Source: Mercenaria mercenaria (Eukaryota). Taken from it: DNA of 64,000 bases. A program made the position numbers and the translations under genes. Below, in pieces: positions 8,364 through 50,879 of the stretch. The stretch lies in the NCBI RefSeq assembly GCF_021730395.1, contig NC_069372.1, forward strand, positions 64,284,221-64,348,220. Reading direction: 5' to 3'. Within the stretch, counting starts at the first letter, position 1, and each line of letters begins with the position of its first letter. Under the pieces are notes generated by a model. The model worked only from the letters and a program-made list of their open reading frames with translations. It did no database searches and was not told where the DNA came from.

Positions 8364-8985
8364 AACAAGGAGCTGCGTTCAATAAACGCTTGATGCCCCC
8401 GGTGGCATCCTTGTCGATAAAAATGAGGTCAAGGTCAAACTGAGGTCAGGTGATGTTTGACGATGAGGAATGGTCACAGGTTACATCTGTATTAGTATCA
8501 ATTCATTCTTGTAAGCAGTATTGATGCTAAACGAAACAGTCCCATTTGGTTAACCAAGAGATGGCCCATATAAAGCAACCTAAGTCCAAAATGAGGTCAA
8601 GGTCAAGGTCAAACTGAGGTCAGGTCATGTTTGACGATGAGGAATGGTCACAGGTTACATCTGTATTAGTATCAATTCATTCTTGTAAGCGGTATCGATG
8701 CTAGACGAAACGGTCCCATTTGGTTAACCAAGAGATGGCCCATATAAAGCAACTTAAGTCCAAAATGAGGTCAAGGTCAAGGTCAAACAGAGGTCAGGTG
8801 ATGTCTGAAGATTAGAAATGGTCACAGGTTACATCTGCATTAGTTTCAAGTCATTCTAGTTAGGGATATTGATGCTAGACGAAACGGTCCCATTTGGTTA
8901 ACCTCGTACGGACGGACGAACGAACGGACGGACGGACAGGACGATCACTATATGCCTTCCGCATCAGTAGATGCCGAGGGCATAA
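8364..8985 (+). mobile_element. Helitron/Helentron-like non-autonomous element carrying about 3 copies of a roughly 190-bp tandem unit, a (GGAC/GAAC)n microsatellite and a 3' GC hairpin (GATGCCGAGGGCAT) followed by AA
   Basis: The 5' region is aacaaggagctgcgttcaataaacgcttGATGCCcccggtGGCATC. Tandem units each start ..aaatgaggtcaaggtcaaggtcaaactgaggtcagg... ggacggacgaacgaacggacggacggac at 8910-8940. Terminal palindrome at 8969-8983. Confidence 0.5.
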
Positions 8986-10880: not shown

Positions 10881-13128
10881 AAAACTTGAATTTCGATATA
10901 TCCGATCTTGTACGATTTTTAATCTGTGAATCTTGAGCAGATCGCAGTTTCAGTATTATACTGAAATTCAGCTTTTCAAAATTTGAAGTACGATTTTCGA
11001 GATGGCTCGACACTAATTGCTTGCTCGATATTTGACTTTTTCATTTCAATATCAATCTTGGAACAGGCTGTTCATTCAATACGAGATCGAAATTTGGCGT
11101 TTGGAATATTATAAATTTCGATCATTGAGCTGGCCCGAAATTAAAAGCTATTTTGCAATTTGACGTTTTTCGATTTTCAGGTGTAGCTTAGGATCAAAAT
11201 TCGATAAGTTATGAAGTTGAATTTCAATCTTCGAGCTGACATAAAATTCTAAGCTATTTTGGACACCGCTCACGACATAATAATAAATGTGCAGTTATTT
11301 GATTACATAAAAACTACTTAAATCTTTATTTCATAATCATGAACATCAAAGAAAGTATTATAAAAGCGAGTTTCCATATGATTGTAAGAAAGTAGAAATT
11401 ACTTTTGGAAAGTCATTGTTTGGTTTTATAATAATGTGTTTGTTGAGAATACCGTTATAAATGGTATTCTGATTAAACCACCAATAGCCATTTAGGTTTC
11501 TATTTTCTAATCTATCTTTGCAATCACTGTAAATTAGGCTTAACAATCAGGCCCGTAGCCAGAGGTAAAAAAATAGGGAGGCATTTGGTAGGGATCCATG
11601 GGCATGCTCCCCTGGGATTTTTTTAGGATGCCATTTCGTGCGTTTTTCTGCATTTCAAACATATTTTTGTTACTTTTTGAAACAGCCAACATATTTGCGA
11701 TTATTGTCACTCTAAAACGCCAATTTAAAGGCATATGGTCATGTTTGCTTGCTTGGTATAATGTTATTCGAACCATATCATATATCATGTATAAAAACAA
11801 GAAAAGCTATCCCACTCACATTCTTTACTGAAGTTTATTTTATACAGTGAAAGATTTTCAACAAATGATTTTACAACAACAACAATAAACTGATGTCAGG
11901 TTGACATTTTAAGATATCATTTCATGATTCTGACACGCAAATAAAGAAAAGAAATTTAAATAATCTTCAAACGATTTACCAAATATAGCCGGTAATACTA
12001 AATCAAGTTTTGGAGTCAAGGATGTTACATATTAAGTTACATTTGCATCGTAATATAAACACGCTAAATGAAACAATATATACAATACCGTGGAAAAAAT
12101 GATCTTAAAATGTATGAAGCGTAATGAATGCCGCAAAGTAAGTTTTTATGCCTTTTTAGTTGTTAGTTGGTTGGATCTCATTACATGGTAATATGGGCAT
12201 AAGTTGCAGCGTCATTGAATTTGTGAAATAAAATAGGAATAAAAAGCACCTGATAACTCCGTTCGAATAATAGAAACAGACAGCAGCCTCAAACTATTGC
12301 ACTTTTAGTTTTCATAGCTTTAAATATATCCATAATATTTGTGTCAAACAAATTAAGTAATTCATTGCAGATACCAAATTCAAACTTTGATCTTCCCCTT
12401 TCATTTTCAAATAAGCTCCCAAATTGTAGTATCAGGGCCAAGGATGAGGGCTCATGGTGTTGCCCATATATCAAAACAATATTGAAGTACTTTCCATTCA
12501 AAACAATAGTTTCTGCGTTCTTACTCTTTTAGCAAACTAAGTGGAATGGGACTATAGCAAACCTATCTTAAGCAGCCATCAAAGGAAGCGACTCAGCGTG
12601 ACTGCTTAAGAAGGACGGCTGCTTAAGTCATGCTGAATAGCTACTTAATACAGTTGATCGCGAAGGCAGGATTTATTCTATACCTCTATTACAGTTTAAT
12701 AGATTATATTTTTATCAAATGTGTGCAAAATGTCTCCCTAAATCTTCATTTTAGCTCGACTATTCGAAGAATAAGGAGAGCTATCCTACTCACAACGGTG
12801 TCGTCGTCACACCTTGGTTAAGTTTTTCGTATCAGTTCACATTTTGACAAATCCTTTTGTCATATAGCTTTCAACACTTGTGTACCTTCACCATGTCAAG
12901 TTTTAGGCTAGAGTACACAACTCTGTCAAGGATTTTGACCGAATTATGGCCCATTTTAACGTAAAATCTTGGTTAAGTTTTCCGTACCAGTTCATATGTA
13001 GTGTAAACTGTTTTACATATGGCTTTGAAACTGTGACAAAGCCTAAAAATAAAAAGGGTAAAATATCAAATATTTAGTCTTTATTGTAGCCTCATTACAG
13101 ATACATATAAGAATTAGCATATTTAAAC

Positions 13129-13573: not shown

Positions 13574-15145
13574 AATTTAAACATCTGTACACAGTCATTA
13601 AATACATTAGAATTATAAGACAATTTTGTATTCTACACTATAACTACCTCTCACATGTACATGTAATTACAGTGTTAAAACCAAGATGGTGTAAAAGGTG
13701 CTAATCGTTAATTAAAAACTGATATATCTTACGACCTAAAATTACATTAAAGCTCAATAAAAACAAGAGCTGTCCGTAAGACAGCAAAGACAGTACGCTC
13801 GACTTTTCTCAGCTAGAGCTGGGCTGAATTCTATCAAATATCGAAAGAAGCAATAAAACATATCAGGCGAAGGTATGAGGCTTGTGTCAGTGTTTGCGCA
13901 TATATCAGTAAACTGTATTTTTGGTAGATTTGTATTTCCGTATCGGAAATACAGGACCGTAGCCAGATTGATTTTTCTGGTCTTAAACACCACATTCCTC
14001 CACCTCCTCCCCTTCATAAAAACTGTTATAAATCATTTGCAGATTCATTCATAAAACTTAACACGCAGTGTATAGGTGGAATAGCCAAAACACGAAGCGC
14101 GTGCAGCACAGTTCAAGGGTGGTTTATTGATGAATATTAAACCCGAGATAGATTTTTCTCTACATGTATGTAGGTTTTTCGCTGGTCGTGTTAGAATTTC
14201 ATTTATTTTGAAGAATATGAAGCGCGAAATTCTTGTTGAAGCAGACGATAGGTAGAACATGGGGTATTGTGATCAATTGATGAAACTCCATTTATGCTGT
14301 AATCATTAATTGGTATGGATTTAAATGTTCTTTTCAACCTTATGAAGTTTTATTTTAATTTCACCCTTCAAACAATTTGTTAAAGCGCATTTTTCTCTTA
14401 CCTCTGGATATCCAGTCTTTGTAGCAACATCCTTGCCATTGTATGAAAGAAGAACTTTTTTTTATAGAAAACCTTTTTCAGCATGAGAGCAACATTATAC
14501 GGAACTTTGATTTTAGGAACATTTTTACATTTAATTTTACTCGTATAAGATAAATCAGCAGCTCCATCAAGAAGAATAATATAGACATACATCTCCCAAA
14601 AAGTAAGTCCTGTGTTGCATCCGAGACCTCCTTCGCAAGAGCGACACATTACAAACCATAAATCGGTATTAGTACCCGGGGTAGATTGCGGAGTGAAAGA
14701 GAAATTTGTCTCTTTAATATAAAAACAGGGCAACAAAGTGTGTTTTTTTTTTTTTACATATCATATATCCTGTTTTTTGGGGAGCCCCACAAACCCTCAT
14801 ATATGGAGGAGGGTGGGACACAACCTTCCAAATTAATGCCCGTCGGGGCTTTGACTTTACCATTCAAATTTACCTAATAACCACGAACAAACACACATAC
14901 TCGTTTGCCTCGGTAAAATTTAGTCTCTCGCTACGGCCATGTATAGTGTAATTATTCGTGATATTAAAAAAAAATAGCGGAAAATAGTGCCTAAGTTCGG
15001 TTTTGCCTTTTAAGATGGTGACTCAAAACATATCCTTTTTTCTCATAATTTTGGCAGAAAAACAGGGAGGCACAGGCCTCCCTGTGCCTCAGTGTAGCTA
15101 CGGGCCTGACAATATCCCTAAATCCATATGATCAAAAGCATTAAT

Positions 15146-16105
15146 CACGGGTGGTAAACGCGCAATCCTATTCCCATTGGGAATACGCTTAAAATGGGTT
15201 GCGCGACTTCCGGTGCTGGTGTTGCGCATCAATATATACAAAATCGAGGTAGGTGGGTTTTTGTTTTTGTAAATAATGACACATTTACGAGTGTTTTCGA
15301 AAAAAGCAAAATGCTATTCGACACAAAAATGAATAAAGATCATATGTTTGAAATGCGAAATTATTAATTTAAGAATCAGCCCTGATATGAAAACTGCTGG
15401 CTCGGTCTGTCAGAAAAGTTTGGAATCATAAAAATGCAAATTTTCTAACTCTTGTGCCTTCTTTCTGGAAATGTGACGCTTCTAATGATCAAACACGTGT
15501 ATAACAGTCATGAATATTACACACACTTGAACGAAATGTTGCTTTAGGGGGAGATGGCAAAAAAAAAACAATCGGGAATGGGGTTGCGCCCTGGGAATGG
15601 AGTTGCGCGTATACATTATATACATTATGATGTACACGAGCAACTCCATTCCCGGTGCGCAACCCCATTCCCGATGATTTTTTGTCAATTATGTCCCTGT
15701 AAGCAGGATTTGAAGCAAATAATTTTGATATTCGTTACTATATAACAGTTGAGTTATCATAAAAAGCATCAGATGTCCTCAGATTAGGTATATGAGGTCA
15801 GAAACTTCCATTTTTGTTGATTTCATGCTTTTTTCACACTTCGTGCCGCCAGAGTTTTTGTGATAATAGAGCCGAATCATTAATTACAAACCAGATATTT
15901 TATATATACGATGTATCATCATATTTGTGTCGAATAGCATTTTCCTTTTTTCGAGAAAAAATATTCTTGTCTCATACGAAGCAAAATCATGACTTCACAT
16001 ATCTCAATTTCGTCTATTTTTACGCGCAACACCAGCACCGGAAGTCGCGCAACCCATTTTAAGCGTATTCCCGGCGGGAATTGGGTTGCGCGTTTACCAC
16101 CCGTG
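15146..16105. mobile_element. 960-bp long-TIR non-autonomous element, copy 1: termini CACGGGTGGTAAACGCGCAA.., about 85-bp TIRs, nested internal inverted repeats and a central palindrome; perfect 5-bp TSD TTAAT (Transib-like)
   Basis: TSD TTAAT at 15141-15145 and 16106-16110. Left TIR cacgggtggtaaacgcgcaatcc..gcgcgacttccggtgctggtgttgcgc, and the right end is its reverse complement. Central palindrome 15575-15680. Confidence 0.6.
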
Positions 16106-16616
16106 TTAATGTAACGGTACATTGGCGAAAAAGGGTTAGACATCGGCCTGAAATACGGAGTAGGCCGAAAACTAGCGAACAGTCTCGACAGCCGATTTAC
16201 CTGGCCAAACGTATTATCGGCTTTTGTGGTGATTTTCACGATGGGTCTAATTTTCCCATTTTTTGTGGAAAATTTAAGTAAAAAGAAAACTCGTTTTTTT
16301 TTGCTCTCATTTTATTAAGCAAAAACAAAGAACAATTCCGATTAAATCATCGTCTGGAGTTTCAATTCATGTATAATTTTTGGGTTTACGTTAAAAAATA
16401 TTGCCGGTACAATAATTTCATGGCAGATTTTGTCCCCGTTTATCTGACGTCAAAAGTGCGCGAAGTGGTCATGTTTGCGACGTCATGGAAACGTCATTGA
16501 TGCATTAAGTTTCGCGAGGACCTGAGAAACAAAAATCAAACAGATACCAATAACAGTCAGAAAGAAAAGTTGTTTGACATGAAATTGAACAGCAGTAAAC
16601 ATGTATTTTACTTTAC

Positions 16617-18959: not shown

Positions 18960-20839
18960 CAGGGCGTCAAGTGCTTTTGGGAGTCAAAAATATAGGTAGG
19001 ATCCTGAAATATAGGTATTTGGGGGCCAGAAATATAGGATTATATAGGTTGCTTATAATGAAGAAAACAAGTCAGACAAGTGTTTTATCCTCCTCCACCA
19101 CCTACCAGCACTCTCTTGTATTAAACATAAAATCTACTTTTATGATTTTAAACAAATAACATTTTAACATATATCTTACTTTCATAATAAACTATTAATT
19201 CACCAACAGACAAAACTTTACCAATACTGGTACTCAAATCAGTTTAACAGGGAATTAGGCAAACCAAGCCATATTGCTAACAACATATATCAGTACATTG
19301 TTAATACAAGTATAAAATATTGTGTTGGGCCTGCATTTGTACATGAATGAAAAAGAAAACAATTATAATCAAACCATCCTCAGAACAAAATTACAACAGT
19401 TTCATACTTATGAATACCATGATCTCTGTAAACATGATAACACATGGAGTCCCTTGACCCAGGGTCCTATAATATTGTTACATTAGACCTTCTTGGATTT
19501 CTTGGCATCTGTTTCTTTATCTTCATTCTTTCTCTTGGATGAATGCTTTTCTGATGAAGGACTTGACTTGGAAGAAGAGGCAGCTTGCTTGTCTGGTTCA
19601 GATTTTGAAGTTCTTGTTGAAGCAGTGGCAGAGCTTTTGGAACTTGATATGGCTGATTCTTGTTTCTTTCCTTTGCTTGATGATTTAGAACTGCACTTAT
19701 CTAGTCTGTTAACCAGTAACTGTCTCTTTTGCTGCTCAACTTCCCTTTGGTTTTCATGTACCCTGTCCATTTCCTTTCATATACCCTCTATCTTTGATGT
19801 GGCTGTTGCTATCATCATTTGTGCTACAGAAGCACCTTTCATGTCACTACTTTCAACAGCTTTAGAAAACGTTTTGTTCCCATCTTTTAACAGTTCCTCT
19901 GCTACAGTCAACCTTGTCTGAATCTCCATTTCTTTTTTAAGCAGTGCTTTTTCTTTTTCAAGCATGGAGGAGGTCTTATTCTTCTCTTCTGTTGCAAGTT
20001 CTTCCAGTCTTTTCTTTTTAAGCCTTTCTTTCTCTCTCTCCTGTTTCTTTTTCTCTCTTTCTTCTTTTTCTGTCTCAATCCTCTGTTTATACTTGTTATG
20101 GGCCATTTTTGCTGCCAAAAGTATTTCACTGTTTAATGGTAATTTGTGAGGTTGCTCATCTATAGGATCACTGAACTTAACTATGTCCTTCACAGTTCTG
20201 ATGGCAGTAACAGTTTTCTCACCCAAGGCAACTCTGTCCTTAGTCACTACACTAGTGTTCACTGACAAACTTCTCTCAACCTCTGAATTTCCATGTGGTA
20301 ATACCAGAGCTTTCTTGACAAGTTGACGTAAAAATCTGTACTTGAGCTGCCCACTATCAAGCTTCTTCACAAACACTTGTCTCCAATAACGGTCAATTCT
20401 ATCTTCTTCTTTCAAATCATCTTCTGTTTGATATACCTTCCATTCATCCACAATATTAACAGTCATATTTTCATCAAAATGCATTTCCTATTCACATTTT
20501 CATACATGAAAGCTTTAAGAAATGGAAAATATTCCAACTGAAAAAAGAACTTCCATTACTTAAAGCTTTCCTAAAGCTGGGCTCGGCAGGGTCGCTACAC
20601 CTGAAAGGAATACAAATTTCAATGCCTAAAAGGTAAAAGCATATTTATAAACTCAATTATCATAGAATTACTTCTTTTTTAATGGTTTGAATGACCTTTG
20701 TATTCCTTGCTTACCACAAAATTTCCAGATTATAGGTATTTATAGGTATTTTGGCAAAATATAGGATTTTATAGGTTATTATAGGTAGAGGGCTAAAATA
20801 TAGGAAAATATAGGTAAATATAGGTAACTTGACGCCCTG
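18960..20839 (-). mobile_element. hAT-like DNA transposon (about 1.9 kb): 13-bp TIR CAGGGCGTCAAGT / ACTTGACGCCCTG, subterminal TATAGG(T) repeat clusters, flanked by direct repeat ACTTTG
   Basis: The TIRs were read directly at 18960-18972 and 20827-20839. ACTTTG sits immediately outside both termini (18954-18959 and 20840-20845). An Ac-type CAGGG terminus is typical of hAT elements. The internal ORF carries a hAT C-terminal dimerisation-like domain. Confidence 0.6.
19483..20484 (-). pseudogene. Transposase-derived ORF with a hAT C-terminal dimerisation-like region (..IDRYWRQVF..LVLPHGNSEVERSLSVNTSVVTKDRVALGEKTVTAIRTVKDIV..), K/E-rich coiled-coil tail and S/K-rich tail; interrupted by one in-frame TGA at 19777-19779
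   Basis: ORFs 19777-20484 and 19483-19770 are in the same frame, separated only by TGA plus two codons. The pattern resembles Pfam Dimer_Tnp_hAT (ER.FS....T..R..L). The N-terminal catalytic part is absent. Confidence 0.5.
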
Positions 20840-22578: not shown

Positions 22579-22647
22579 TACATATTTATGGCATAAAATC
22601 TTTAAATTTTACCATAAAATGTTAACAGCCTGTTGACATGATTGTTT

Positions 22648-23028
22648 TTAGTCATCATCTTCATCATCATCATCTCTGCGTGCACGTTTTGACGGAACAA
22701 CCATTCCACCTCCTATGCCTCCAATCAAGCCTTGGGCTGTGCTGAACAAGTTTATAGGACTTGATCCATCGGTGATGACGGTTGATTTCATACCAAGAGC
22801 CTGCAGCATACGAACCTGAAGATCAGGGCCTGCGGTTGCGATGGCCTGGAGAGTACTTGCGCCAATAGCATCCACCATTTGTTTGAACTTAATGGTCTCA
22901 ATCTCAGAAGTTTCACGCGATTTGGCAAGTTCCATCTCGTTCTGCTCCTTGACAAATTTAAGCTCCGCCTCTCGAGCACTGGTCAACCTCTCAAGTTCAG
23001 ACTCCGCCTCAATCTTCATGGCTTGTGC
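22648..23028 (-). CDS. MVP: MVP exon 13, terminal ([15 protein letters not shown]...[31 protein letters not shown]), stop TAA at 22650-22648
   Basis: ORF 22648-23019 (minus). Acceptor ttttgtag at 23030-23029. Matches the human C-terminus [47 protein letters not shown]. Antisense AATAAA signals (plus-strand tttatt) at 22573-22578 and 22430-22435. Confidence 0.85.
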
Positions 23029-23410
23029 CTACAAAATAATAACCATGAAAATAAAAATATCAAACCAGGACCTACAATTTTCATAAAGATTTTCTAGAAA
23101 GGTTTTTTTTGTGAACACTAAAATTCAAACTTTTGCAAAATATAATATCTCACTGATGTATTTGACTTTTGAAGTCTGTTATCTCCAAGTTCAAAAATAG
23201 TTCTCCAAAACGTTGAGCTACCGAGTTATGTCTGTATAACAATTACAAATGTTACCAGGAAAGTTTGATTTATTTAACGACACAAGAAATTACTTTAACT
23301 CTACAATTCTTTCTTCTTAACTTTACTCTTCACTAACAACAAAACTACAACTAAACTGCTAGTAATAAAACCTTCAGCTCGTTTCAGTCAGTTTGAAGTG
23401 TGCTGCCTAC

Positions 23411-23630
23411 CTTCAATTTAGCCTGCTCAACGGCTGCCTCTCCCTCAATCCTCGAGGCCTCGGCACGAGACTGAGCCTCTGCCTTCGCTTGACCAGTGGA
23501 CTCTACAGCTGCACTGTGTGCCTGTAACTCCAGCAGGTCCTTACGAGCCTTCTCAGCTTCAGCCTCGTCACTGATTTTCTGACGTTCAAGACGTCCCTTA
23601 GCCTCCTGTTCTAGACGTTCAGCTTCATGT
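23411..23630 (-). CDS. MVP: MVP exon 12 ([73 protein letters not shown])
   Basis: ORF 23384-23707 (minus). Acceptor cacag at 23632-23631, donor GTAGGC at 23410. Matches the human cap-helix region [73 protein letters not shown]. Confidence 0.85.
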
Positions 23631-23989
23631 CTGTGTGAGAAATATTCAAAGGTTAATTGTAAATCTCCAACAGCATATGGATATAAATAGAGTTGAAATA
23701 ACAACAATGCAACACAATTATATCTTTAAAATGACACACTAATGTTGCATGAGACTCACCATAAACACTGACAAATAATTAAGCATGTCTACACTTTTGT
23801 GGTTGCCTCGTTCCACAAAATTAATTACCAACAAATAAAATTCCCATTCATTTTATCTACAAAACTTGAAATTCAATCACTTATATCCTACAAAAAAAAA
23901 TGTTTTAAGCGAAATAATGAAATTTCATGTCCACACAATTAGAAGATTTCACAGTAACCTTTAACAAACTAGAATGTGTCTGTAGGACA

Positions 23990-25213
23990 CAGGGTGTGCC
24001 CCCCCCCCCCCACTGGTACATTTGTCACAAATAAGGGGCAATAATTCAAATGTTTGCAGTCTCAGTTTGAGGGTATAGCCTCAACAAACACTTTATGAAA
24101 AGGAGAAAAGGATTCATTATTCTAGGCCATATACTTTTTGAGCTATGAGCAAAACAAACAAAAAATCCACTATTTTGGCTATTTCAAGGGCCATAACTCT
24201 GTAATAAAAGCTAAGATTCTCAAGAAGAATGGTAAGTGTGCAAAGTCACATCACGATAAAGACTCCAGCAAGGTTTCCTGAATTTACATCTAATACTTTT
24301 TGAGCTAGGCAAATAATTAGGTAAAAAAGTGCATAATTAGGTGAAAATGTGCATTTTTTTGCTATTTCAGGGGCGATAACTTTAAAAATAGGGGGTGGAG
24401 CCAGCCAAAAAATTAGAGGAGTGCAAGTTTATATCATGATTAAGATTTATGCAAGTTTTCAACTATTTATACTAAATACTTTTTGAGCTAGGTGCGTCAC
24501 AAGGTGAAAATGTACATTTTTGACTATTTCAGGGGCCATAACTCTAAAAATAGGGGGTGGACCCAAATGAAAAATAGGAGGTGTGCAAGTTCATATCATG
24601 ATTAAGACTAATGCAAGGTTTCATGAATTTATATCAAATACTTTATGAGCTAGGCATATCACAAGGTGAAAATGTGCATTTTTGACTATTTCAGGGGCAA
24701 TAACTCTGAAAATAGGGGGCGGAGTCAGATGAAAAATAGAAGGTGCGCACGTTCATATCATGATTAAGACTCTTGCAAGGTTTCATGAATCTATATCAAA
24801 TACTTCTTGAGCTAGGCGTGTCACAAGGTAAAAATGTGCATTTTTGACTATTTCAGGGGCCATAACTCTGAAAATAGGGGGCAGAGCCAGATGAAAACTA
24901 GGAGGTGCGCAAGTTCACATCATGATTAAGATTCATGCAGGTTTCATGAATCTATATCAAATACTTTTTGAGCTAGTGTGTCACAAGGTAAAAATGTCAT
25001 TTTTGACTATTTCAGGGTCATAACTCTGAAAATAGGGGCGGAGCCAGACGAAAAATAGAGGTGCGCAAGTTCATATCATGATAAAGACTCATGCAAGGTT
25101 TCATCAATTTATATCAAATATTTTTCGAGCTAGGCGCGTCACGAACTTCGGACGGACGCACAGACAAGACCAAATCTATATGCCCCCACCACTCATGGGG
25201 GGGGGGGCACAAA
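23990..25213 (+). mobile_element. Helentron-like element with about 6 copies of a roughly 160-bp tandem unit, bounded by poly-C (24001-24012) and poly-G (25196-25206) runs; (GGAC)-type tract and TATGCCCCC..GGGGGGCAC hairpin at the 3' end
   Basis: Tandem units are recognisable by ..tttttgagctagg..gtgaaaatgtgcatttttgactatttcaggggccataactct.. at about 24300, 24478, 24636, 24797, 24962 and 25120. Lies in the MVP intron between exons 11 and 12. Confidence 0.5.
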
Positions 25214-25317
25214 AATGGTTTGTAACTGTATGAACTTTACTAAAGCAAGATTGATTAAACCAAGTACTAATGTTACTTAAGATGCCAAATTAAGCAGATG
25301 AAAGATTGACAAATCTG

Positions 25318-25583
25318 TTTGTTTTGGGTTTAACGCCATTTTTCAATTGTATTTTAGTTATGTTAACCTAACAAGTGTTCCTGGATTCTGTACCAGTACA
25401 AACCTGTTCTCCACAAGTAACTGCCAACTTCCCCACATAAATCAGAGGTGGAAGATGAATGATTTCGGACACATTATCTTCTATCAAATTGTCATGGAGA
25501 ACATACGCCTCGCCCGGGGATTGAACTCACGACCCCGCGATCCGTAGATCTGCGCTCTCCCTACTGAGCTCAGTGGGCGGGCC
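25318..25583 (-). mobile_element. tRNA-derived SINE copy (about 266 bp) with TSD AATCTG
   Basis: The minus-strand 5' head is GGCCCGCCCACTGAGCTCAGTAGGGAGAGCGCAGATCTACGGATCGCGGGGTCGTGAGTTCAATCCCC, carrying tRNA A- and B-box-like motifs. The 3' tail is ..CGTTAAACCCAAAACAAA. AATCTG flanks at 25312-25317 and 25584-25589. It lies in the MVP intron between exons 11 and 12. Confidence 0.6.
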
Positions 25584-25621
25584 AATCTGGGTTTCTGCCA
25601 TGATCCAATTGAACTGTATAC

Positions 25622-25833
25622 CTTGCAGCAGCCTCCTGCGAGTTGGTGGTGATTTCTATAGCGAGCTGGACAGATTTCTGTAGTGAATCACGTGTACGCT
25701 GGTCCACTGGCTCTACTGACTGGATGTCTATGCTTGTGACGTACAAGTTGTTCTGTTTGAAAACAAACACATCTCGGACCTTGTCTTTCTCATCAAAACC
25801 AAACACGGATGACCTGATTACCCTTGCGGAATT
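25622..25833 (-). CDS. MVP: MVP exon 11 ([70 protein letters not shown]+R)
   Basis: ORF 25570-25923 (minus). Acceptor tttacag at 25836-25834, donor GTATAC at 25621. Matches human [51 protein letters not shown]. Confidence 0.85.
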
Positions 25834-26584
25834 CTGTAAATACATGAAATTAATGTGTAACAAATGCTTAGGAACAATGATTTTCAAAAAACATTGCTTA
25901 CAAAGAACCTTCTTATACAACACACATAAAAGAGCTTAGTCTAGGAACCAAGTCTCAAATTTCAAAGTTCCCTTTGTTTTAGGCAAATTAAAACTCAATC
26001 AAGCCAAACAACACTAATTAGTGATGTGTTTAATGCAATAAAACACTTTCCATGTTTTCCAGGGCTGTTTAGAATTAAAGTTCTAACAAAATGTGATAAA
26101 AAATTAAATACATGTTATATCAAGTTGAAATTTGGTACGCTGTTTTTACGCTAATTTTAATTCCCTACCCTATCCTTTCTACAACAGTTATATCAAAGTT
26201 GGCTTGATAAGAGTAAAGCTACAGTTATTTTTTTTTACTTTCTACTTTAAAGCCTTCTGAAAAGCCCTTCAATTGATGACCTTACTGAAAAGAGCTCCAA
26301 ATACTTAATTAACATATAATCATTCTTTAGTATGAAGTTATGATTTCAACCAATAAGGTAATTCTTGATATATATACGAGGTAGCTATTCTTTACTTGCA
26401 TGTATGTGTGTATGTTGTAAATATCTTTACTTGACAATAACCTGCTTAAATTGTCAGGTGAATGGTAGGTAAATCTACATGATAATAACTTCAGACTTTG
26501 GTTTTACACCTTTGTACGTTCATGCACAGCTATAGTGTGTGGATAATTTGAAACGTTTTGAATTCTGACACCACAATGAAATAA

Positions 26585-27215
26585 ACAGGAGCACCGCCTA
26601 TGGGTGCCATCGCTCGTCTGCAACTGCTGGACAATATGTAAGAAAAGAGTTATAGCTCAGATTTTCTAAGTACAAAAAGGGCCATAATTCTGACAAAATG
26701 CAGGTTAGAGTTATGGTTCTTGACCTACATTGTCCCCCTAATGATGATAAACAAGTGTGCAAAGTTTCAAAGCTGTAGCTCTTATAGTTTTTGAGAAACG
26801 GTGACATAAACAAAAAATTTAACTAATAAACTCAAATTTTCTAAGTACAAAAAGGGCCATAATTCTGACAAAATGCATATCAGAATTATGGGTCTTGGCC
26901 TACATAGTCCCCTAACAATGATAAACAAGTGTGCAAAGTTTCAAAGCTGTAGCTCTTACAGTTTTTGAGAAAAGGTGGACCTAAACAAAAATTTCCACCA
27001 AGAATCTCAAATTTTCTAAGTACAAAAAGAGCCATAATTCTGACAAAATGCATATCAGAGTTATGGTTCTTGGCCTAATGATGGTAAACAAGTGAGCAAA
27101 GTTTCAAAGCTGTAGCTCTTACAGTGTTTGAGAAAAGGTTGACCTAAACAAAAATTCTAACCAACGCCGCCGCCGATCAAGTGACGACAATACCTCGTAG
27201 ATTGTTTTCAAAAAT
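26585..27215. repeat. Tandem array, about 3 units of roughly 190 bp (..ttttctaagtacaaaaagggccataattctgacaaaatgca..), with GCACCgcctatGGGTGC hairpin at the left edge and a (GCC)3 tract at the right edge
   Basis: Direct repetition read at about 26640, 26830 and 27015. Lies in the MVP intron between exons 10' and 11. Confidence 0.5.
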
Positions 27216-28018
27216 CAGACGAGCTGAAATTGTAATCCTGTATGTATGCAAACCAGAAAAAATATGAAACAGCAATCTATCAAGTATCATTTAGCACAAA
27301 GGATGGCAGGTGTGTATACCAGGTTTGGAATAGGTCAAGAGATAGCTGGGGTCGGAACCTGTATAGTTCTAAGCCCTTTACTGTTTATCTGACTACACTA
27401 TGCATTGTCTAAAAACTGGGAGCTCCAGTAGCTCTGCCTTTAATACAGAAACTTTAAATGTTCCTACTGCTCAAATGGAATGCAAGGATAACAATTAAGA
27501 AAACCCTATGTGTAAAACTTAATTTACCAGGAATTTACTCAATATGGACAGATTATGCTGTAACTTCTATTACTTAGAATCTGGTTAGTGGCAAATCAAA
27601 GAAGAGATTTAACATATATCATGCAGGTATGGTAGGGTCCACCACAAAATCACTGAATTATTGCTTTCAAGATATGAACTCTATTCATTCCAAATTCTCA
27701 TTGGATTTTAAAACAGAAACTTTAATTTTTGTCTATCAACATGAATTCTGAACATTATTTTTTTGTTTAATTCCTCTTAAAATTCAATCATTATTTAACT
27801 ACAATGTTTTCATTTTTCTATTAAAACAAAACTTTGCAAACTGACAATATGTGAATCGATAGTTTCAAACTTTGTCCCCTAGTAATGAATAAGGACAATG
27901 CCAGCATATCAAGGAAAAATGTTTTTTTCTCTACTGTATCTTTTCTAGCCACAATCCAATGGCAAGCAAAACGGTTAGGACAATTATAGAATTCACACTC
28001 ATGTAACAGAAACTATAC

Positions 28019-28163
28019 CTTATGGAAATCATCAAATGCAACTTGAGCCACTGCCCCTCTAACTCTAGAGGCAATAGCTTTACATGCATCGCCAATAAAA
28101 TCGGGAACGCTGAATAGTTTAGCAGCATCTTCGCCATCAGTCTTACTTTCTACTCCAAAATGC
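28019..28163 (-). CDS. MVP: MVP alternative exon 10', downstream copy of the same 145-nt exon ([48 protein letters not shown]); probably mutually exclusive with 28211-28355
   Basis: Hand translation in the MVP frame. Acceptor attgcag at 28166-28164, donor GTATAG at 28018. Same length and phase as the neighbouring exon, and only 47 nt separate the two exons. Confidence 0.65.
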
Positions 28164-28210
28164 CTGCAATGTCAAAATGTTTTATAAACGTACATCAGTA
28201 ATAAACATAC

Positions 28211-28355
28211 CTTATGGAAATCGTCAAAAGCTACTTGTGCGACAGCACCTCTTACGCGAGAAGCTATGGCTTTACAAGCATCGCCTACGAAATCTGGAAC
28301 ACTGAAGAGTTTTGCTGACTCGGCGACATCATCTTTGTTTTTCACCTCAAAATGC
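28211..28355 (-). CDS. MVP: MVP exon 10, upstream copy of a tandem duplicated exon pair ([48 protein letters not shown])
   Basis: ORF 28172-28387 (minus). Acceptor ttttgcag at 28358-28356, donor GTATGT at 28210. Matches human [48 protein letters not shown]. 145 nt, begins with 1 nt and ends in phase 0. Confidence 0.8.
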
Positions 28356-29020
28356 CTGCAAAATGCTAAAATGTTATTTACACACACAAGGTGAAAGTGT
28401 TAAAGGTTAGATAGAAAAGGTGTTTGAAGGTGTTTTGGTTAAAAAATGTTAACACATGTACATGTTAGCGCATTTGAATCATTCAAACACTAGCAACTAA
28501 AACTGAAACTCCTGAGCCAAAACAAAAATCAAGCATATCTACAGTTACAACCAAGTACACTGTACACTGTCACGTGTGTAAAGATAAAAACTTAGCTGAA
28601 GAAAACTAATTTTCATAAAATCGTATCTCAGGTAATTTCCAGTAATATGTAATACTTAAATGTTTTTTTTCTTGAAAATACCTTATAATTACCAGTACAG
28701 TCAAACCTGTGCTACAGACCACCTCCAAATAAAGGGCACAACTATAAAACCTGCCCATAAAGGCCACTATTTACTTGTCCCATTTACTTGTTAACAGTGT
28801 ATATTTACCTGTGTAGATAGACCACCTGTCAAGAGCCCACTTTTTCCATTTCCCAAATATGGTCAATACAGACAGGTTTGACTACACCTTAAACAACTTA
28901 TAATTTTCCTGTATAACATTATATGTAGTTAATTTTCAAATTTCTGCCATTAAGAAACAAGATATTGAAAAAACATAAAAATTAAGTTTTGTTTACATTT
29001 AGCCTACTGTATATACTTAC

Positions 29021-29218
29021 CAGTTATAAGATAATTGCAATGAAAGCCTGGCGTGGTCCGATGTTTCAACTACAATAATATCGGTACAGAAGTCTGGTCC
29101 GAGAAGGAGACACAGAGATTTGATTACATTAGGTTTCTTCGGTTTACCACCTGACAAGCTGAGCTGAGTAAACTGTTCATCAGGGCCAAGCATAACCAAT
29201 TCTGGACCAAATACAACT
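29021..29218 (-). CDS. MVP: MVP exon 9 ([66 protein letters not shown])
   Basis: ORF 29017-29199 (minus). Acceptor tttcag at 29220-29219, consensus GTAAGT donor at 29020-29015. Matches human [66 protein letters not shown]. Confidence 0.85.
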
Positions 29219-29689
29219 CTGAAATTGAATTGGTTAATTGTTTAAAACAACATGCTCTGATTTACATTATTTCAATTTCCTAGGGCTAACGAAGTCCCTT
29301 TCTTAAAGGTAATCAGCCAAGTACAGTATTTTACTTTCATCCAATTCACTTTTAATAACAAGAGGGTCATGATGACCCAGAATCGCTCACATGAGTAATA
29401 TGAGCCACATATTTAAAATTGCAAACTGATGCTAAAATATTAGAAAGTAGGTCAGTAGGTCACATTCATGGTCACTGAGAGTCAGTTTTAAGACTGGTGT
29501 GAAAAACTGTACATGTCATCCAAAATTCAAGGCTGTATCTTAAAAAAACAAGAAAGTAGGTCAGTAGGTCAAGGTCACAGTCAAGTGACCCCTAATCACT
29601 TCCAGTCATCAGTTAATTATGATTAAGCACTCTAGGAAATATGATTTGATAATTTTTGAAGTATTTATTCCTATATAACTCATATAACA

Positions 29690-30560
29690 AGTGACCCCCA
29701 GGGCGGGGCCTCTTTTCACCCCAGGGGCATAATCTGAACAATCTTGTATGAGATCCACTAGGCAATGCTACATACCCAATATCAAAGGCCTAGGCTATGA
29801 ACTTTCAGACAAGAAGATTTTTTCCCCTATAGATATGTCTATGTTAAATTTGGGAACCCTAGGGCATGGCCTCTTTTCACCCCAGGGGCATAATTTGAAC
29901 ACTTTTGGTAGAGGAACACCAGGCAATGCAACATACCAAATATCAAAAGCCTATGCCATGCAGTTTCAGGCAAGAAGATTTTTAAAGTTTTTTCCTATAT
30001 AAGTCTATGTAAAACTTGAGACCCCCGGGGCAGGGCCTCTTTTCACCCCAGCGTTATAATTTGAACAATTTTGGTAGAGGACCATAAGGCAATGCTACAC
30101 ACCAAATATCAAAGGCCTAGGTCTTGTGGTTTTAGACAAGAAGATTTTTAAAGTTTTTTCCTATATAAGTCTATGTAAAACTTGTGACCCCCGGGGCAGG
30201 GCCTCTTTACACCCCAGGGGCACAATTTGAACAATCTTACTAGAGGACCATTAGATGATGTTACATGCCAAATATCAAGGCTCTACGCCTTGCGGTTTTG
30301 GACAAGAAGATTTTTAAAGTTTTTCCTTTCGGTTGCCATGGCAACCAGAGTTCTGCATGGAATTCAATTCTTTGAAAAATTTTGAAAGGGGGCAACCAAG
30401 GATCATTTCTGTGAAGTTTGGTTTAATTCTGCCCAGTGGTTTTCAAGAAGAAGATTTTTTTAGAAAATGTTGACGGACGGACGGACGACGCACGACGGAC
30501 ATTGAGCGGTCATAAAAACTCACTATGAGCCTTTGGCTCAGGTGAGCTAATAAACTGACT
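29690..30560 (+). mobile_element. Helentron-like element with about 4.5 copies of a roughly 160-bp unit (..ggggcctcttttcaccccaggggcataat..), (GACG/GGAC)n tract and terminal GAGCCtttGGCTC hairpin + aggtgagctaataaa
   Basis: Units at about 29700, 29865, 30025 and 30185. gacggacggacggacgacgcacgacggac at 30471-30500. Lies in the MVP intron between exons 8 and 9. The same terminal motif (gctcacc..ggtgagctaataaa) is seen at 1985-2030. Confidence 0.45.
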
Positions 30561-31662
30561 GTAATGTATGCTAAATGGATGTAAACCACACCTCACTGTA
30601 GGCTATATTTCAAACATAAACCTTTTAAAGTAAATCCCTCTATCTATCAGGCAGGCATAAATAAATCCTTTCAATGGATTAAGAAGATTACATTCTCAAA
30701 ATTTTGAGAAATCATCATACTGGTTGGGAACCATTTTCCGGACACATTTTCATATTTTGGCTCCATTATTCCCTAAAAATAATATTTGATATAAATGAAG
30801 CCCACACTACACAAACTTCAGCTCCTTCTGCATCCGATGTTGTAATCAGCATCGCGTTGTGACGTAAAACATGGGTTCTATGGGGCCTCAAATGGGGTCA
30901 CTAAAAGAAGTTATTTCCCCCGTAAGGTAAACCAGTATCCGGACAAATATTTTGACGGTATTTTGCTGTTAATTTGATATCAAAATAAGTAATTAAACTA
31001 TTTTTACACATTTCTTTATCATTCATCTCTTCAAAAATGCACACGAAACATAACCTGACGTTCAATAGCAGCTACGAAAGCAAACCGAAGTTGACAATAA
31101 AAATCTCGAATTTCGTCTAAGGCGGATTCTTGATAATTCCAACAGATATAGAATAAAATTAGTGCAAAAATTGACAGCCCTGCATTTTATGTAACTATTA
31201 CCGTGAAATTATAAGTAGCACATGTTATCAGCGGACAATCAATATGAAGTTTAATTATTTCTTCCCCACTTGGTACTTCGGCAAGTGTGAACTACTGCGC
31301 ATGCGCAATGCTATCTTCATGCCCCATTAAGACAGAAAGTTGTTTTGTAAACACAGGTGTGTTATCATAAAAAAAACTAACATAAAACAGTTTTGTAATA
31401 TAGTGGTTGGTTGTATACATGAAGAACAAACACCTAAATGATCTAGATGAAACAATAACAGGAATAACAACGAAATAAAGCGGATATTACATGTGTCCGG
31501 AAACTGGTCCTGTCCGGAAACTGGTTCCCAACCAGTATAGTGCAATGATTTTCACTAACCAATTATTCAGCTAACATAACTGAATTTGTTCCTTTATTCA
31601 TGAAAGAAATGAGTCTCCAGTAGTCTAACTGGTATTTAAAGTTATTCATTTATTTTTCCTAC

Positions 31663-31898
31663 CTTGCTTTCTTCTCCTTGTAATCATAGATCTGTACAGC
31701 AGCATTATGAGGTACCCTAAATGTGATCACACGTGTCTTGTCTCTTGCTTTCGCTGCCTCTGGGGTGCGTCGGTCACTACGATCGGCAAGAGGATCTTTT
31801 GCTGCCATGAGCAGATTCTCAACTGCTGGTGGTAATTCTTTTGACCATAGTTCTTCATCATGATTCAGCATATAAGTTTCACCTGTAACTGCCCTTAC
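31663..31898 (-). CDS. MVP: MVP exon 8 ([30 protein letters not shown]...[23 protein letters not shown]+R)
   Basis: ORF 31659-31871 (minus). Acceptor tttcag at 31900-31899, donor GTAGGA at 31662. Matches human [54 protein letters not shown]. Confidence 0.85.
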
Positions 31899-45866: not shown

Positions 45867-46619
45867 CTTGTATGTCAAAATTGTATGCCCAATACTGATG
45901 AATAAAAGTTATTCTATTCTATGCCTATCAGTTTTAGGATAATTCTGTAGTCATTTTCAAAATGCTCCATTCAGGCTCGTTGGGGGAGTGGTGGCGTACA
46001 CGTGTATGTTAACTGCATGAGAAGTTGTTGATTCACGGGTGGTAAACGCGCAATCCAATTCCCACTGGGAATACGCTAAAACTGGATTGCGCGACTTCCG
46101 GTGCTGGTGTTGCGCATCAATATATACAAAATCGAGGCAGGTGGGTTTTTGTTTTTGTAAATAATGACACATTTACGAGTGTTTTCGAAAAAAAGCAAAA
46201 TGCTATTCGACACAAAAATGAATAAAGATCATATGTGTGAAATACCAACTAATTAATTTAAGAATCAGCTCTGTTATCACGAAAACTCTGCTGGCTCGAG
46301 CTGTCAAAAAAGCATGGAATCATGAAAAATGCAAATTTTCTAGCTCTTGTGCCTTCTTTCTGGAAATGTGACCCTTTTAATGACCAAACACGTGTAAAAC
46401 AGTCATGAATATTACATACACTTGAATGAAATGTTGCTTTTGGGGAAAAGATTGGCAAAAAATAATCGGGAATGGGGTTGCGCCCCGGGAATGGAGTTGC
46501 GCGTATACATTATATACATTATGATGTATACGAGTAACTCCATTCCCGATGATTTTTTTTTGTCAAATCTGTAGTCCCCGTAAGCAGGATTTGAAGCAAA
46601 TAATTTTGATATTCGTTAC

Positions 46620-46658
<39 letters not shown>

Positions 46659-48177
46659 CCATATTTGTATAGCACTCTTTTCATACAAAAGAATATACGT
46701 TCAAAAATGCTTAACAATAGAATGAACATACATGCACAATAGATAATTACAAAAATAAAACAATGATACGGATAAGATACGTGTTTAAAACATTAAATAA
46801 TAGTTAAAATTATTAAATGCTAAACACAGTTTACTACATGAAAGTCAAAACAATATCACACTTGCAATATATCTATGCATATGACTACGAATAACACAGT
46901 TTGTCTGGTTAAACACAAATTACATCTAAAACAGTTTACGCAGAAAACAACATTGAAGTGTTTAAAATACGATTCATAACGAGATTAAGAAAAGAATTTA
47001 GATTGATAAGCTGACAAATTCACAGTCGGACTATCACATGCATGTGCATGGTCACTGTCCATAGTATTTTACAAATAAATGTGTTTTTAACGATTTTTTG
47101 AATGATAAGAGTGTTCCATTGTTTCTTATGTCATTAGGTAGAGCATTCCACAGTCTTGGTGCAGCATGTCAGAAACTTCTGTCACCGTATTTTACAGTAC
47201 GTGATTTTTGCACAACAAGTAAATTTGAATTTTGTGATCTTAAATTTCTTGAAGGTCTGTATATATCAAGCATGTCCTTGATGTATTTAGGGGCATGATC
47301 TTGAAGAGCTTTATAGGTGTGGGTCAGGATCTTAAACTCCACCCTGTATGGTACAGGAATCCAGTGTAGTTCTTTAAGCACAGGTGTTATGTGCTCGTTA
47401 CGGCGTGTTCTCGTTATTATACGTGCAGCTGCATTTTGAACGTTCTGAAGTTTGTTTAAACAAGACCTCGGAATGCCATACAAAAAACCATTACAGTAAT
47501 CGAGACGTGAGGTAACCAGGGAGTTTACTAGCGACTTTGTGGCATTGGAGGTAATGTAGTCCCTTATATGTTGTATCTGACGCAACTGTATATAACAAGA
47601 TCGACATACGGCATTTATATGTTTTTCCATGTCCATTTTCGAATCAAGGATTGCGCCTAGATTTCTTACGCTGGATGACGGTGTTATGGTAGACTCGCCA
47701 ACTTTTACTGTAATGTTATCAGTGAGTTTTTCATTTTGTTTTGATGTGAAGACAATGACTTCGGTTTTTTCAGCATTCAGTTTCAGCATGTTTTTATTCA
47801 TCCAGGTGATTATTTCATTGAGACAATGTTCTACTCGTTGTAGGGATTCAATTCTAGTAACAGTCTCTGTTGGCTTAAATGACAGATATAATTGTCCATC
47901 ATCAGCATAGAAATGATAATTGAGCCCATGATTCTCACAAATTGCACCAACAGGTTTTGAGTACATGGTAAAGAACTTAGGTCCAAGGACTGAGCCCTGT
48001 GGCACACTATATTTCATCAAAACAGGGTTTGACACCTCTCCATCAATACAGACAGTTTGGTAGCGCTCGTCTAAATAAGACTTCACCCACTCAAGTGGTT
48101 TGCCTGCAATATCAAAATGATGTTCAAGGCTGTGCAACAGAGTCCCGTGATCAATGGTATCAAAGGCTGCTTTATGA
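46620..48177 (-). mobile_element. 5'-truncated non-LTR retrotransposon (LINE) fragment: C-terminal reverse-transcriptase region (YADDGQLY motif) plus a 3' (AAT)n tail, inserted into the long-TIR element
   Basis: ORF 47169-48137 (minus), 322 aa, with the RT palm motif FYADDGQL and downstream thumb-like sequence. (att)12 at 46621-46657 lies at the element's 3' end. The host element's sequence resumes at 48178. Confidence 0.65.
46621..46657. repeat. (ATT)12 microsatellite (the 3' tail of the minus-strand LINE fragment)
   Basis: Direct reading. Confidence 0.8.
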
Positions 48178-50879
48178 CAGTTGAGTTATCATAAAAAAAA
48201 ACATCAGATGTCCTCAGATTAGGCATATGGGGTCAGAAACTTCCATTTTTGTTGATTTCATACTTTTTTCACGCTTCGTGTCGCCTGAGTTTTTGTGATA
48301 ACGGAGCCGAATCATAAATTACAAACCAGATATTTCACACATATGATGTATTACCATATTTTTGTCGAATAGCATTTTGCTTTTTTCGAGAAAATTTATT
48401 CTTGTCTCATACTAAGCAAAATCATAACTTCACATACCTCAATTTCGTCTTTTTTTACGCACAACACCAGCACCGGACGTTGCGCAACCCATTTTAAGCG
48501 TATTCCCGGCGGGAATTGGATTGCGCGTTTACCACCCGTGTGACTGACCAAATGAAATGTGTCAAGATGTTCCTCTAGTAGAATTAAATGTGTTAATAGT
48601 TGATTAGGGTGAGGAAATTATTTGTTATAAAAAAGTTTAATAAAAAGTTTAATCTTATTCAAATGTTTGAAAATAAGCAGCATCAAATACGGACATTTAA
48701 ACAACACTCATCCAGCAGACTTACTAAAACAAAGAGAAAAAAACACACCAGAAAATCCTCTTTGTTAAACCGATCATTTTTAAAGCAAAAAGTTCTTATA
48801 ACAAACGAAAACTTATGTATATTTTTGGCACAAAATATTCATATTTGAAAGAAAAAACCGAATTAATATATCATACTTTGATTTTTTCTCTCAAAAATAC
48901 GTTTTAAAAAGGGGACCGAAAAAGGGGGACGAAATGACCAATTTGAAATCGCCGAAGGGGACGAAATGACCAAATCGGGGACGGGTTGACTGGGGGACGA
49001 GTTGACTTAGGGGACGAGTTGACTGTAAATCGATGAGGACAAGAACTTGAACAGCAAAGTCTTCTGAGATGATTCTCCCACTAAAAATTACTAACATCGT
49101 ATCTGATAAAGTCTATATGAATATAGTTGAAACTATTTTTCTTGTATGTATATATTGGAAACTTTAAAAATATTCTTGTCAGAAACAGCATGCCCAATTT
49201 TAAAATAATATCACAAAAATGTTTCTTGGCTGACCCCTTACGAAGATTGTTGAAATTCTGTTTCATCAAAAAGCATTGCCACCAAGGGATGTGGTCACTT
49301 TATCCCTTAGTTATGTAGTGGAAACTTTAAAAATCTTCATGTTTGATATTGTCATATCACATCATTTCCTCAATGTCTTACGTACCCTACCTCAACGCGC
49401 CCCCCCTCCCCCCCCCCAAAAAATGCACACATACACATTAACTGCCTGTATTTATTTAGTAGAAACTTTTGACTGTTCACTGTAAGCAAGCAACTAAACT
49501 CAGGTGAGCGATATAGGACCATTTTGTTTTCTTACATTTGCTCCTCGCTTGAAAATGTTTTTGCTTTTATAGATGGGGGAGGATCAACATATCAGCTCCT
49601 TTCTTAGCCTTTAATCGAATGATAAGTGGAAATGAGGACAGTATATACTAAACAAAGAAAATTTAAAATGTTCAACAGACAAAGCCACGTTTCCAAACGC
49701 AGCCTTCCGAAAGTGCAAAACACAGCACGCAGAGGGGCATAAGACCAGTGCACATTGATAAACAAAGTGCAAAGTAGGACACAGCCTTAACTGGCCCGGT
49801 CAGCCGCAAAACCACCACTGGGAACCTAATATAAAATCTGAAAAGTACCAGTTTATGGTGCGCACCCCACCTCACTCTAACCCTGGTCATGTTCGAAAAT
49901 CACAGGACAGTGTAATTAAAAAGTTATCCCGCCAGGCGAATCCCCAACACGCGTAACAGTAACAAAAGCTATGGCATGTGAAACACAAAAATGCAGTTTT
50001 TGATTAATTTACATATATAAAGAGCTAATTTTACGACCACTGCCCCCCCCCCCCAAAAAAAAAAAACACCAAGAAAAAACGCATGTTGCTCAACGCCTTT
50101 GCGGAAGGCATAACATCAAGAGAAACTCCTTTTAAAGCCCGACAAAACTGGCCAAGAAGCTATAACTTGATTCCACAAAACTTTGCTTCATAATTGAACT
50201 AAATTATCTGAAATACAATGTATTACACAAAACATTTAAAGGCATTCTATAACGTGAGGGGTGTTGCCCTTTCCATAATTTTTATGAACAGACTCATTCA
50301 AACCGAGTCTGTTACTTTTTTATTGATTGTATTCTATGCTTCCGGAGAATCTATTTTTACTCGTATGAATGCATTTTATTATATACTGATGTCACAATAA
50401 CAACTAATGTAGAACAAATCCTATGATCTTAAAGTCGCAAAAGTAAACTCTTGTATAGAAAAACATTGTCTTTTGACAAGAGCAAAGATACTTCTTTATT
50501 TTGACCATTCGAAAATAGGTAGTGCTATATGTACTGCACACTAGCTTGCACTTTCATTGGCGGTTAAGATTTTGAATAAGGTTAACTGTAACCACTGGTT
50601 GCATGAGATTGAAAGTTAACACTTATTCACTGTGGTGAGCTGACTCTACTTCAAAACAATGGTCAAAACTAAGTATATAAGCTGGTATTTCAGAAAAACC
50701 ACTGCTGTGTTTCCTGTGGATACACGACATGGAATACACAGGGTCTATAACTCCAGTTTACTTTCTCAAGAAGCTTTAATTTATGTCGGATATGATAGAA
50801 CATTACAACACTAACGATTATTATGCTATATAAGAAGTTTGTTGTTTAACTCCTTAAATAATTTTATTAGAGTTTCATT

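Follow-up and report, generated by a model that had tools for sequence, protein, structure and literature searches.

Which transposase moved a 960-bp non-coding palindrome that lies at positions 15146-16105 of a 64,000-nt stretch of the Mercenaria mercenaria genome (assembly GCF_021730395.1, contig NC_069372.1, positions 64,284,221 to 64,348,220; hereafter the window)? The original prediction, made from the letters alone, took this element for a miniature inverted-repeat transposable element (MITE) mobilised by Transib, the superfamily related to RAG1. Our analysis indicates that the element almost certainly represents a family of non-autonomous cut-and-paste DNA transposons that have terminal inverted repeats (TIRs) and whose target-site duplications (TSDs) are 5 bp long. 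Its placement in the Transib/RAG-like group is tentative, and we weigh it below against the alternatives.

Boundaries and target-site duplications

The window holds exactly four occurrences of the terminal sequence CACGGGTGGTAAACGCG, at 15146 (+), 16105 (-), 46034 (+) and 48540 (-), against 0.01 expected from dinucleotide-preserving shuffles. They delimit two copies of the element (Table 1). The termini and the perfect TTAAT duplication predicted for the first copy were recovered exactly, and the second copy, predicted at 46034-48540 with flanks TGATT and TGACT, has precisely the boundaries of the first. Similarity between the two (88-93% identity; Kimura two-parameter (K2P) distance 0.067-0.083) sets in precisely at CAC and breaks off precisely at GTG. 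When TSD lengths from 2 to 10 bp were tabulated, only 5 bp gave a match in both copies (5/5 in copy 1; 4/5 in copy 2, TGATT/TGACT), and the other lengths gave 0-4 scattered matches. The length on which the prediction had staked its claim therefore fits copy 2 as well, where a 4-bp TTAA reading gives 0/4. Under the window composition the chance of 5/5 is 0.0014 and that of at least 4/5 is 0.021 (empirically, 0.0014 and 0.022), jointly about 3e-5.

A scan of 241 million metagenome records with the first 20 nt of the element returned one contig of 1,055 bp (L001; Ga0181600_10203230). Its positions 921-1055 are a right-type end of the element, 91-96% identical to the window copies, which begins at CAC after an unrelated flank (...AAACAA) and gives a single-end target of TTGTT. 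The CAC tip is thus present in 5/5 ends, four in the window and one on the contig, and the sample for TSDs and boundaries consists of two complete copies and this single end. Because the two copies and the contig end start at the same CAC amid unrelated flanks, the element is a dispersed repeat with real boundaries, not a local structure. Structurally it is a MITE: 960 bp, non-coding, with 83-bp TIRs, a 5-bp TSD and three independent insertions. That CAC/GTG might be target sequence instead of element is ruled out by the 5-bp direct repeats, which stand outside it. No paralogous empty site for the flanks occurs within the window. In addition, the loci of the neighbouring major vault protein (MVP) gene in related species align in exons only (76-87% nucleotide identity), so that no orthologous empty site was obtainable.

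Copy 2 is 2507 bp long, the excess being a nested fragment of about 1.55 kb from a long interspersed nuclear element (LINE). This fragment carries an RVT_1 domain in the open reading frame (ORF) 47169-48137 (-) (E = 5.8e-13), and its (TAA)n tail reads (TTA)n on the plus strand at 46621-46657. Since the LINE fragment is nested inside it, copy 2 is old. As to the metagenome contig, G/C-rich palindromic stretches of GGGGGTCCGGACCCCC type at its positions 400-470 and 700-760 resemble part of a CAGGCCCGTAGC-ended repeat at window 11548-11620, suggesting that it is likely host (bivalve) DNA in an environmental sample. Scans of metagenome, genome and viral collections with TIR 20-mers yielded this contig as the sole match, with its single end, and a degenerate 39-nt inner-TIR pattern matched nothing in the collection scans. 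A locus of another genome (L008), described below for a neighbouring transposon, has no copy of the element.

Palindromic anatomy and coding capacity

The whole 960 bp aligns with its own reverse complement over positions 1-960 at 71% identity, and copy 1 folds as a single end-to-end hairpin (RNA minimum free energy -449 kcal/mol vs -229 in shuffles, z = -25). Identity between the arms is uneven. It reaches about 94% across the first ~82 bp (75 matches in the first 80 aligned columns) and about 97% where a 33-bp block at 15298-15330 pairs with 15921-15953; the centre stands at about 90% and the remainder at about 60-65%, the homology of this poorly conserved interior still being significant (z = 7.6-11 vs shuffles). 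The original prediction had described near-identical TIRs of about 85 bp, a second pair of subterminal inverted repeats and a central palindrome of about 100 bp. The TIRs are indeed long, at 83 bp, and agree with each other at 77/83 positions in copy 1 and at 74/83 in copy 2; the second pair is found as the 33-bp block; the central palindrome, however, measures 159 bp.

The left TIR reads, in order, CACGGGTGGTAAA, CGCGCAAyCCnATTCCC-N3-GGGAAT, GGGTTGCGCG and TTCCGGTGCTGGTGTTGCGC. A bipartite motif, GGGAAT followed by GGGTTGCGC, is present in both orientations in each TIR and recurs four times in the central palindrome, where it takes the form GGGAAT-N-GGrGTTGCGC, twice direct and twice inverted. 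The arms of this palindrome (15544-15620 and 15626-15702, 77 nt each) are 79% identical, and as a DNA hairpin it reaches -61 kcal/mol (z = -14). In the central copies TATAC comes after the motif, in place of the TTTAC-CACCCGTG of the true end, so that each half of the element resembles a unit with a degenerate inner end. Meanwhile, differences between the left and right arms, including the sequence just inside the TIR, are common to both copies and the metagenome contig (for example, left ATTCCC-AYT-GGGAAT vs right ATTCCC-GCC-GGGAAT), and an asymmetric master sequence is therefore older than these insertions.

Such uneven identity between the arms is the pattern that would be expected if the conserved blocks are sites required in cis, and to judge from the alignments the blocks are best read as putative cis-acting sites retained by selection for mobility. 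The palindromic body is most simply explained in either of two ways: a parent may have lost its interior, so that its two long terminal regions came to form the non-autonomous element, or one end may have undergone an ancient inverted duplication. Transcripts through the element, if they exist, would make a long hairpin that could hypothetically feed small-RNA pathways; an Rfam scan gave only generic miRNA-hairpin matches to the central palindrome, all of them sub-threshold.

The predicted lack of coding capacity was confirmed. The ORFs of the element have no match in Pfam, and its six-frame translation found nothing at E <= 1 among 5.8 billion proteins. Exact look-ups of window ORFs, two of which overlap the element (one crossing the right boundary into the flank), found none on record.

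Table 1. Coordinates of the two copies, their internal parts and other repeats of the window
Feature	Position	Strand	Remark
Copy 1 of element	15146..16105	.	960 bp, complete end-to-end imperfect palindrome; exact 17-nt termini
Copy 1, left TSD (TTAAT)	15141..15145	.	
Copy 1, right TSD (TTAAT)	16106..16110	.	
Left 83-bp TIR	15146..15228	+	77/83 identical to reverse complement of right TIR
Right 83-bp TIR	16023..16105	-	partner of left TIR
Second conserved inverted block, left arm (TTTTCGAAAAAAGCAAAATGCTATTCGACACAA)	15298..15330	+	~97% identical to right-arm partner
Second conserved inverted block, right arm	15921..15953	-	
Central palindrome, 159 bp	15544..15702	.	four TIR-like motif copies
Copy 2, left TSD (TGATT)	46029..46033	.	
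Copy 2, right TSD (TGACT)	48541..48545	.	one substitution vs left
Copy 2, left part	46034..46620	.	88% identical to copy 1 positions 1-598
Copy 2, right part	48172..48540	.	91% identical to copy 1 positions 593-960
Nested 5'-truncated non-LTR (long terminal repeat) retrotransposon fragment, (TAA)n tail	46621..48171	-	not part of element
Tandem arrays	8426-8903, 24339-25142, 26656-27164, 29652-30324, 33764-34265, 35463-36485, 59673-60568, 62260-63998		

Superfamily assignment

We infer the superfamily of the element from its termini and duplications, and the Transib/RAG-like group is our leading candidate, held at somewhat less than an even chance. This grade results from weighing the argument of the invariant CAC bases against target preference and a strong taxonomic prior. 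The Transib and RAG-like (RAGL) lineage is defined by invariant 5'-CAC termini together with 5-bp TSDs (PMC1131882, PMC7204232); only the CAC of the heptamer is treated as invariant (PMC1131882), and 532 of 533 hopper insertions in Drosophila (99.8%) have a 5-bp TSD (PMC3276498). Both features are found here, the 5-bp TSD in two copies (n = 2) and the CAC...GTG termini in five ends. In addition, a bivalve, the pearl oyster Pinctada, harbours RAGL elements that are non-autonomous (PMC7204232).

Several observations weigh against this assignment. The original prediction had regarded a CACGG-type tip with a 5-bp TSD as the hallmark of Transib. As a Transib hallmark the 5-bp TSD is outdated, because hAT5 elements (PMC12730594, PMC7165386) also make 5-bp TSDs and KolobokP families of bivalves, Mercenaria among them, make TSDs of 3-5 bp, in some families 4-5 bp (PMC9587614). 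The prediction had also derived the heptamer CACAGTG of the recombination signal sequence (RSS) from Transib TIRs; the tip CACGGGT matches CACAATG/CACAGTG at positions 1-3 only, with TG displaced by one base. AAAC stands at positions 11-14 of the element and no AAA at positions 8-10, whereas RAGL TIRs have AAAC at positions 8-11 (CACTWMCAAACK, PMC7204232; CACACCCAAACCT, PMC9435367). The TIR contains no A-rich nonamer at 12- or 23-bp spacing, positions 20-28 being ATCCTATTC and positions 31-39 ATTGGGAAT; this weighs lightly, since HzTransib, which has long TIRs, is also devoid of a recognisable RSS-like nonamer (PMC1852546, PMC4840297).

The insertion sites are a further difficulty. A strong preference for GC-rich targets, CCANTGG for example, characterises Transib, RAG and RAGL (PMC1131882, PMC3276498, PMC10629977), insertion being into CCANTGG in Drosophila and at 82.5% GC in Ptychodera (PMC3276498, PMC10629977, PMC1131882). 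The targets here are AT-rich, namely TTAAT, TGATT/TGACT (TGAYT) and, on the metagenome contig, TTGTT, and the 35-bp insertion sites have 31% and 34% GC, the level of the genome average (window, 35.6%). In a survey of molluscs, Transib accounted for 1 of 14,275 DDE transposase ORFs, and hAT was the second richest superfamily (PMC10294476). Neither the window nor the metagenome, genome and viral collections scanned yielded an autonomous partner whose TIRs match. A Pfam scan of all stop-to-stop ORFs of the window that reach 75 aa (89 in number) detected only MVP domains and one reverse transcriptase, and no transposase anywhere. A literature search with the terminal 9-mer and with CACGG plus Transib returned unrelated primer matches only, and the basis of the assignment is confined to two complete copies and a single end. 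Of the claim of a Transib-mobilised MITE, the non-autonomous nature, the CAC...GTG termini and the 5-bp TSD thus stand, whereas the targets and the TIR layout are non-canonical and the partner was not found.

An alternative that we consider less likely, although it has the most in its favour after Transib, is that the element is a non-autonomous member of hAT5 (with a 5-bp instead of an 8-bp TSD), moved by a hAT transposase that forms hairpins on the flanks. Many hAT TIRs read CAG(G/A)GGTG...AAA, one base from CACGGGTGGTAAAC; the overall flavour CA-N-GGGTG...AAAC is shared with the element, and repeated subterminal motifs are typical of hAT. The 5-bp TSD fits hAT5, a described animal group with TSDs of this length (PMC12730594, PMC7165386); the usual 8-bp hAT TSD was rejected, since each copy matches at 2/8 positions only. 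For insertion, hAT elements are reported to favour AT-rich DNA (PMC1131882), like the sites TTAAT, TGAYT and TTGTT here, and they abound in molluscs, where Transib is nearly absent (PMC10294476). Moreover, a hAT-like family with short, 6-bp TSDs occurs both in the window and in a related genome, and a pair of CAG ends with a 5-bp repeat is possibly present in the window as well. However, hAT termini read 5'-YARNG, with G (or A) at position 3 (PMC1131882), and the element has C there in 5/5 ends. Its 83-bp TIR is long for hAT, where 10-25 bp is usual. The hAT-like element of the window, 3 kb from copy 1, ends in CAGGG and has other TIRs (CAGGGCGTCAAGT) and a 6-bp TSD, and neither Pfam nor the six-frame protein search revealed a hAT-coding remnant inside the element.

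Still less probable is another or undescribed lineage, either a relative of CACTA/Chapaev/Mirage (CMC) that has shifted to a 5-bp stagger or an uncharacterised bivalve superfamily. CAC...GTG termini with many subterminal repeats are classic CACTA/CMC traits, and the element has CAC termini with subterminal repeats. The CACTA-Mirage-Chapaev-Transib (CMCT) clade as a whole spans TSDs of 2-5 bp (PMC12730594), CMC elements occur in all surveyed molluscs (PMC10294476), and the AT-rich T-N3-T targets fit neither the canonical Transib nor any known hAT motif. On the other hand, the TSDs of EnSpm/Chapaev/Mirage are 2-4 bp (PMC7165386), lengths at which the two copies give 0-2 matches and neither fits, and a superfamily normally keeps to one tightly fixed TSD length. 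Positive evidence for a CMC-like or new lineage was not found. Academ is ruled out by its TSDs of 3-4 or 9-10 bp (PMC9587614, PMC7165386).

A Kolobok- or piggyBac-type insertion at TTAA, including a KolobokP-like unit with a 3-5-bp TSD, is very improbable. The flank of copy 1 does contain TTAA; solo repeats of KolobokP (about 450 or 660 bp, with short TIRs of their own and 3-5-bp TSDs) are common in Mercenaria (PMC9587614), and each half of the element is about 480 bp long with a degenerate, TIR-like inner end. However, copy 2 has no TTAA (0/4 at 4 bp), and a TTAA reading needs an unpaired extra T and asymmetric ends. Kolobok termini are 5'-RR...YY-3' (PMC9587614), as opposed to CA...TG here, and the halves of the element are inverted where KolobokP repeats are direct. 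Finally, that the element is one long palindrome might be seen as the mark of a local inverted duplication or structural hairpin that never moved and is flanked by repeats by chance, but this reading, the least credible of all, is refuted by identical boundaries with unrelated flanks in two unlinked copies 30 kb apart and in a third end on an unrelated contig; the TSD chance of about 3e-5 also speaks against it.

Returning to the Transib/RAG-like assignment, a route of mobilisation can be proposed. Lacking coding capacity, the element must depend on a DDE transposase that acts in trans and whose gene lies elsewhere. This enzyme would bind the 83-bp TIRs and probably also the repeated GGGAAT / GGGTTGCGC motif of the TIRs and the central palindrome; it would cleave exactly at the outer C of CAC and, on reinsertion, cut the target with a 5-bp stagger, giving rise to the 5-bp duplications. 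The most likely enzyme would come from the Transib/RAG1-like branch of the CMCT clade. If RAG1-like, it would start with a nick at CAC, close the flanking DNA into hairpins and then transfer the blunt 3'-OH ends, a chemistry established for HzTransib, ProtoRAG and RAG (PMC4840297, PMC10629977). A bolder proposal, to which we give a low probability, is that the family is moved in venerid clams by a RAG1-like/Transib-clade enzyme, or by one of an unrecognised sister CMCT lineage, that has lost the preference for GC-rich targets. Such an enzyme would keep CAC cleavage and the 5-bp stagger, and in place of heptamer and nonamer it would rely on TIRs that are long and symmetric and carry a repeated bipartite motif; the preference lost would be a trait thought to reflect the target bending common to RAG, RAGL and Transib.

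On present evidence the element is an ordinary decayed MITE family of a bivalve genome, and it may be already catalogued: its two copies are about 7-8% apart, and one of them, broken by a LINE, lies like the other beside the clam MVP gene. If the Transib/RAG-like assignment is true, the import would be modest. Transib transposases are nearly unreported in molluscs and RAG-like transposons are known from only a few bivalves; MITEs with CAC termini and 5-bp TSDs would then betray the activity of a RAG1-like transposase in Veneridae and offer a case of atypical, AT-rich target choice. The locus also counsels caution, as the equation of a 5-bp TSD with Transib is outdated and two other families in the window also seem to bear 5-bp duplications.

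Genomic surroundings and comparison with known elements

The MVP gene occupies about 22600-40000 (-), with exons for Vault, Vault_2, Vault_3, Vault_4 and MVP_shoulder and the end of the C-terminal exon near 22650; the best matches of its exons in the protein collection are 94% identical and come from ENA metagenome contigs. Copy 1 is situated about 6.5 kb beyond the 3' end of the gene, and copy 2 upstream of it. The window is dotted with tandem arrays (Table 1), each made up of 2.6-12 copies at a period of 145-175 bp, and several of them are within MVP introns. Units from separate arrays seem in part akin to one another (e.g. GGGGCCATAACTC), suggestive of a single dispersed repeat family of satellite-like or MITE-like type. 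A 106-aa ORF at 60797-61117 (+), ending in ...HFYSGNPTVEKVKGILHIYKDK, has no Pfam match; it may be similar to the N-terminal part of BRCA1-associated protein (BRAP).

The window also holds other transposon-like repeats with short duplications. An internally deleted hAT-like transposon at 18960-20839 (-) has the TIR CAGGGCGTCAAGT, subterminal repeats of ACCTATA type and a 6-bp TSD, CAAAGT on the minus strand. Its ORF 19777-20484 is C-terminally hAT-dimerisation-like, at a Pfam E value of only 0.12, and is 94% identical to Mercenaria mercenaria XP_053405310.1, which NCBI lists as 'titin homolog', probably a wrong name for a transposon protein; going by this match, the window most likely belongs to Mercenaria or a close venerid relative. 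At locus L008 (7732-13201), a relative about 5.5 kb long has the TIR CAGGGCGCCCGGT, the 6-bp TSD GAATGG and a frame, broken by stops, with a zinc-finger N-terminus and a D/D/CxxH core that Pfam models did not detect. The two constitute a hAT6-like family.

The end CAGG(C/A)CCGTAGC occurs four times in the window, against 0.02 expected. One pair of such ends (11548/15108) is flanked by the direct repeat ACAAT, perfect over 5 bp, and stops 37 bp left of copy 1, whereas in the pair 13952/18291 the inverted repeat extends outwards instead (AAATACAGGACC). No coding evidence accompanies the pair with the 5-bp repeat. The CAG ends possibly belong to hAT5-like elements with 5-bp TSDs that overlap or are nested around copy 1. 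Just left of copy 2, a 753-bp long-TIR element (45115-45867; arms of 169 nt, 93% identity) has Kolobok-like RR...YY termini, G(A/G)CAGTGGCTAGG...CC, and a 5-bp direct repeat, TTGTA; it would be a third family in the window with an apparent 5-bp TSD.

Among known systems, bivalve KolobokP solo long terminal repeats, abundant in Mercenaria, resemble the element in being non-coding, a few hundred bp in length and furnished with TIRs of their own and 3-5-bp TSDs; they differ in their RR...YY ends and in being direct instead of inverted. CACTA/EnSpm-Chapaev-Mirage elements share the CAC termini and the multiple subterminal repeats in both orientations, but their TSDs are 2-4 bp long, whereas 5 bp alone fits here. 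With hAT5 the element has in common the 5-bp TSD, AT-rich sites, repeated subterminal motifs and animal hosts that include marine invertebrates, and it departs from hAT in the third terminal base (C, not G or A) and in a TIR of 83 bp in place of the usual 10-25 bp. The non-autonomous Transib/RAGL elements, represented by TransibN of insects and sea urchin and by the RAGL elements of the pearl oyster, agree with it in the CAC...GTG termini, the 5-bp TSD, the non-coding body and mobilisation in trans, and HzTransib further shares the long TIRs and the absence of a clear nonamer. In contrast to these elements, the clam element has the tip CACGGGT, no AAA at positions 8-10, no A-rich nonamer, symmetric TIRs, AT-rich in place of GC-rich/CANTG targets and no RAG1-like partner in the scans, and its body is palindromic along the full length, with internal copies of the TIR motif.

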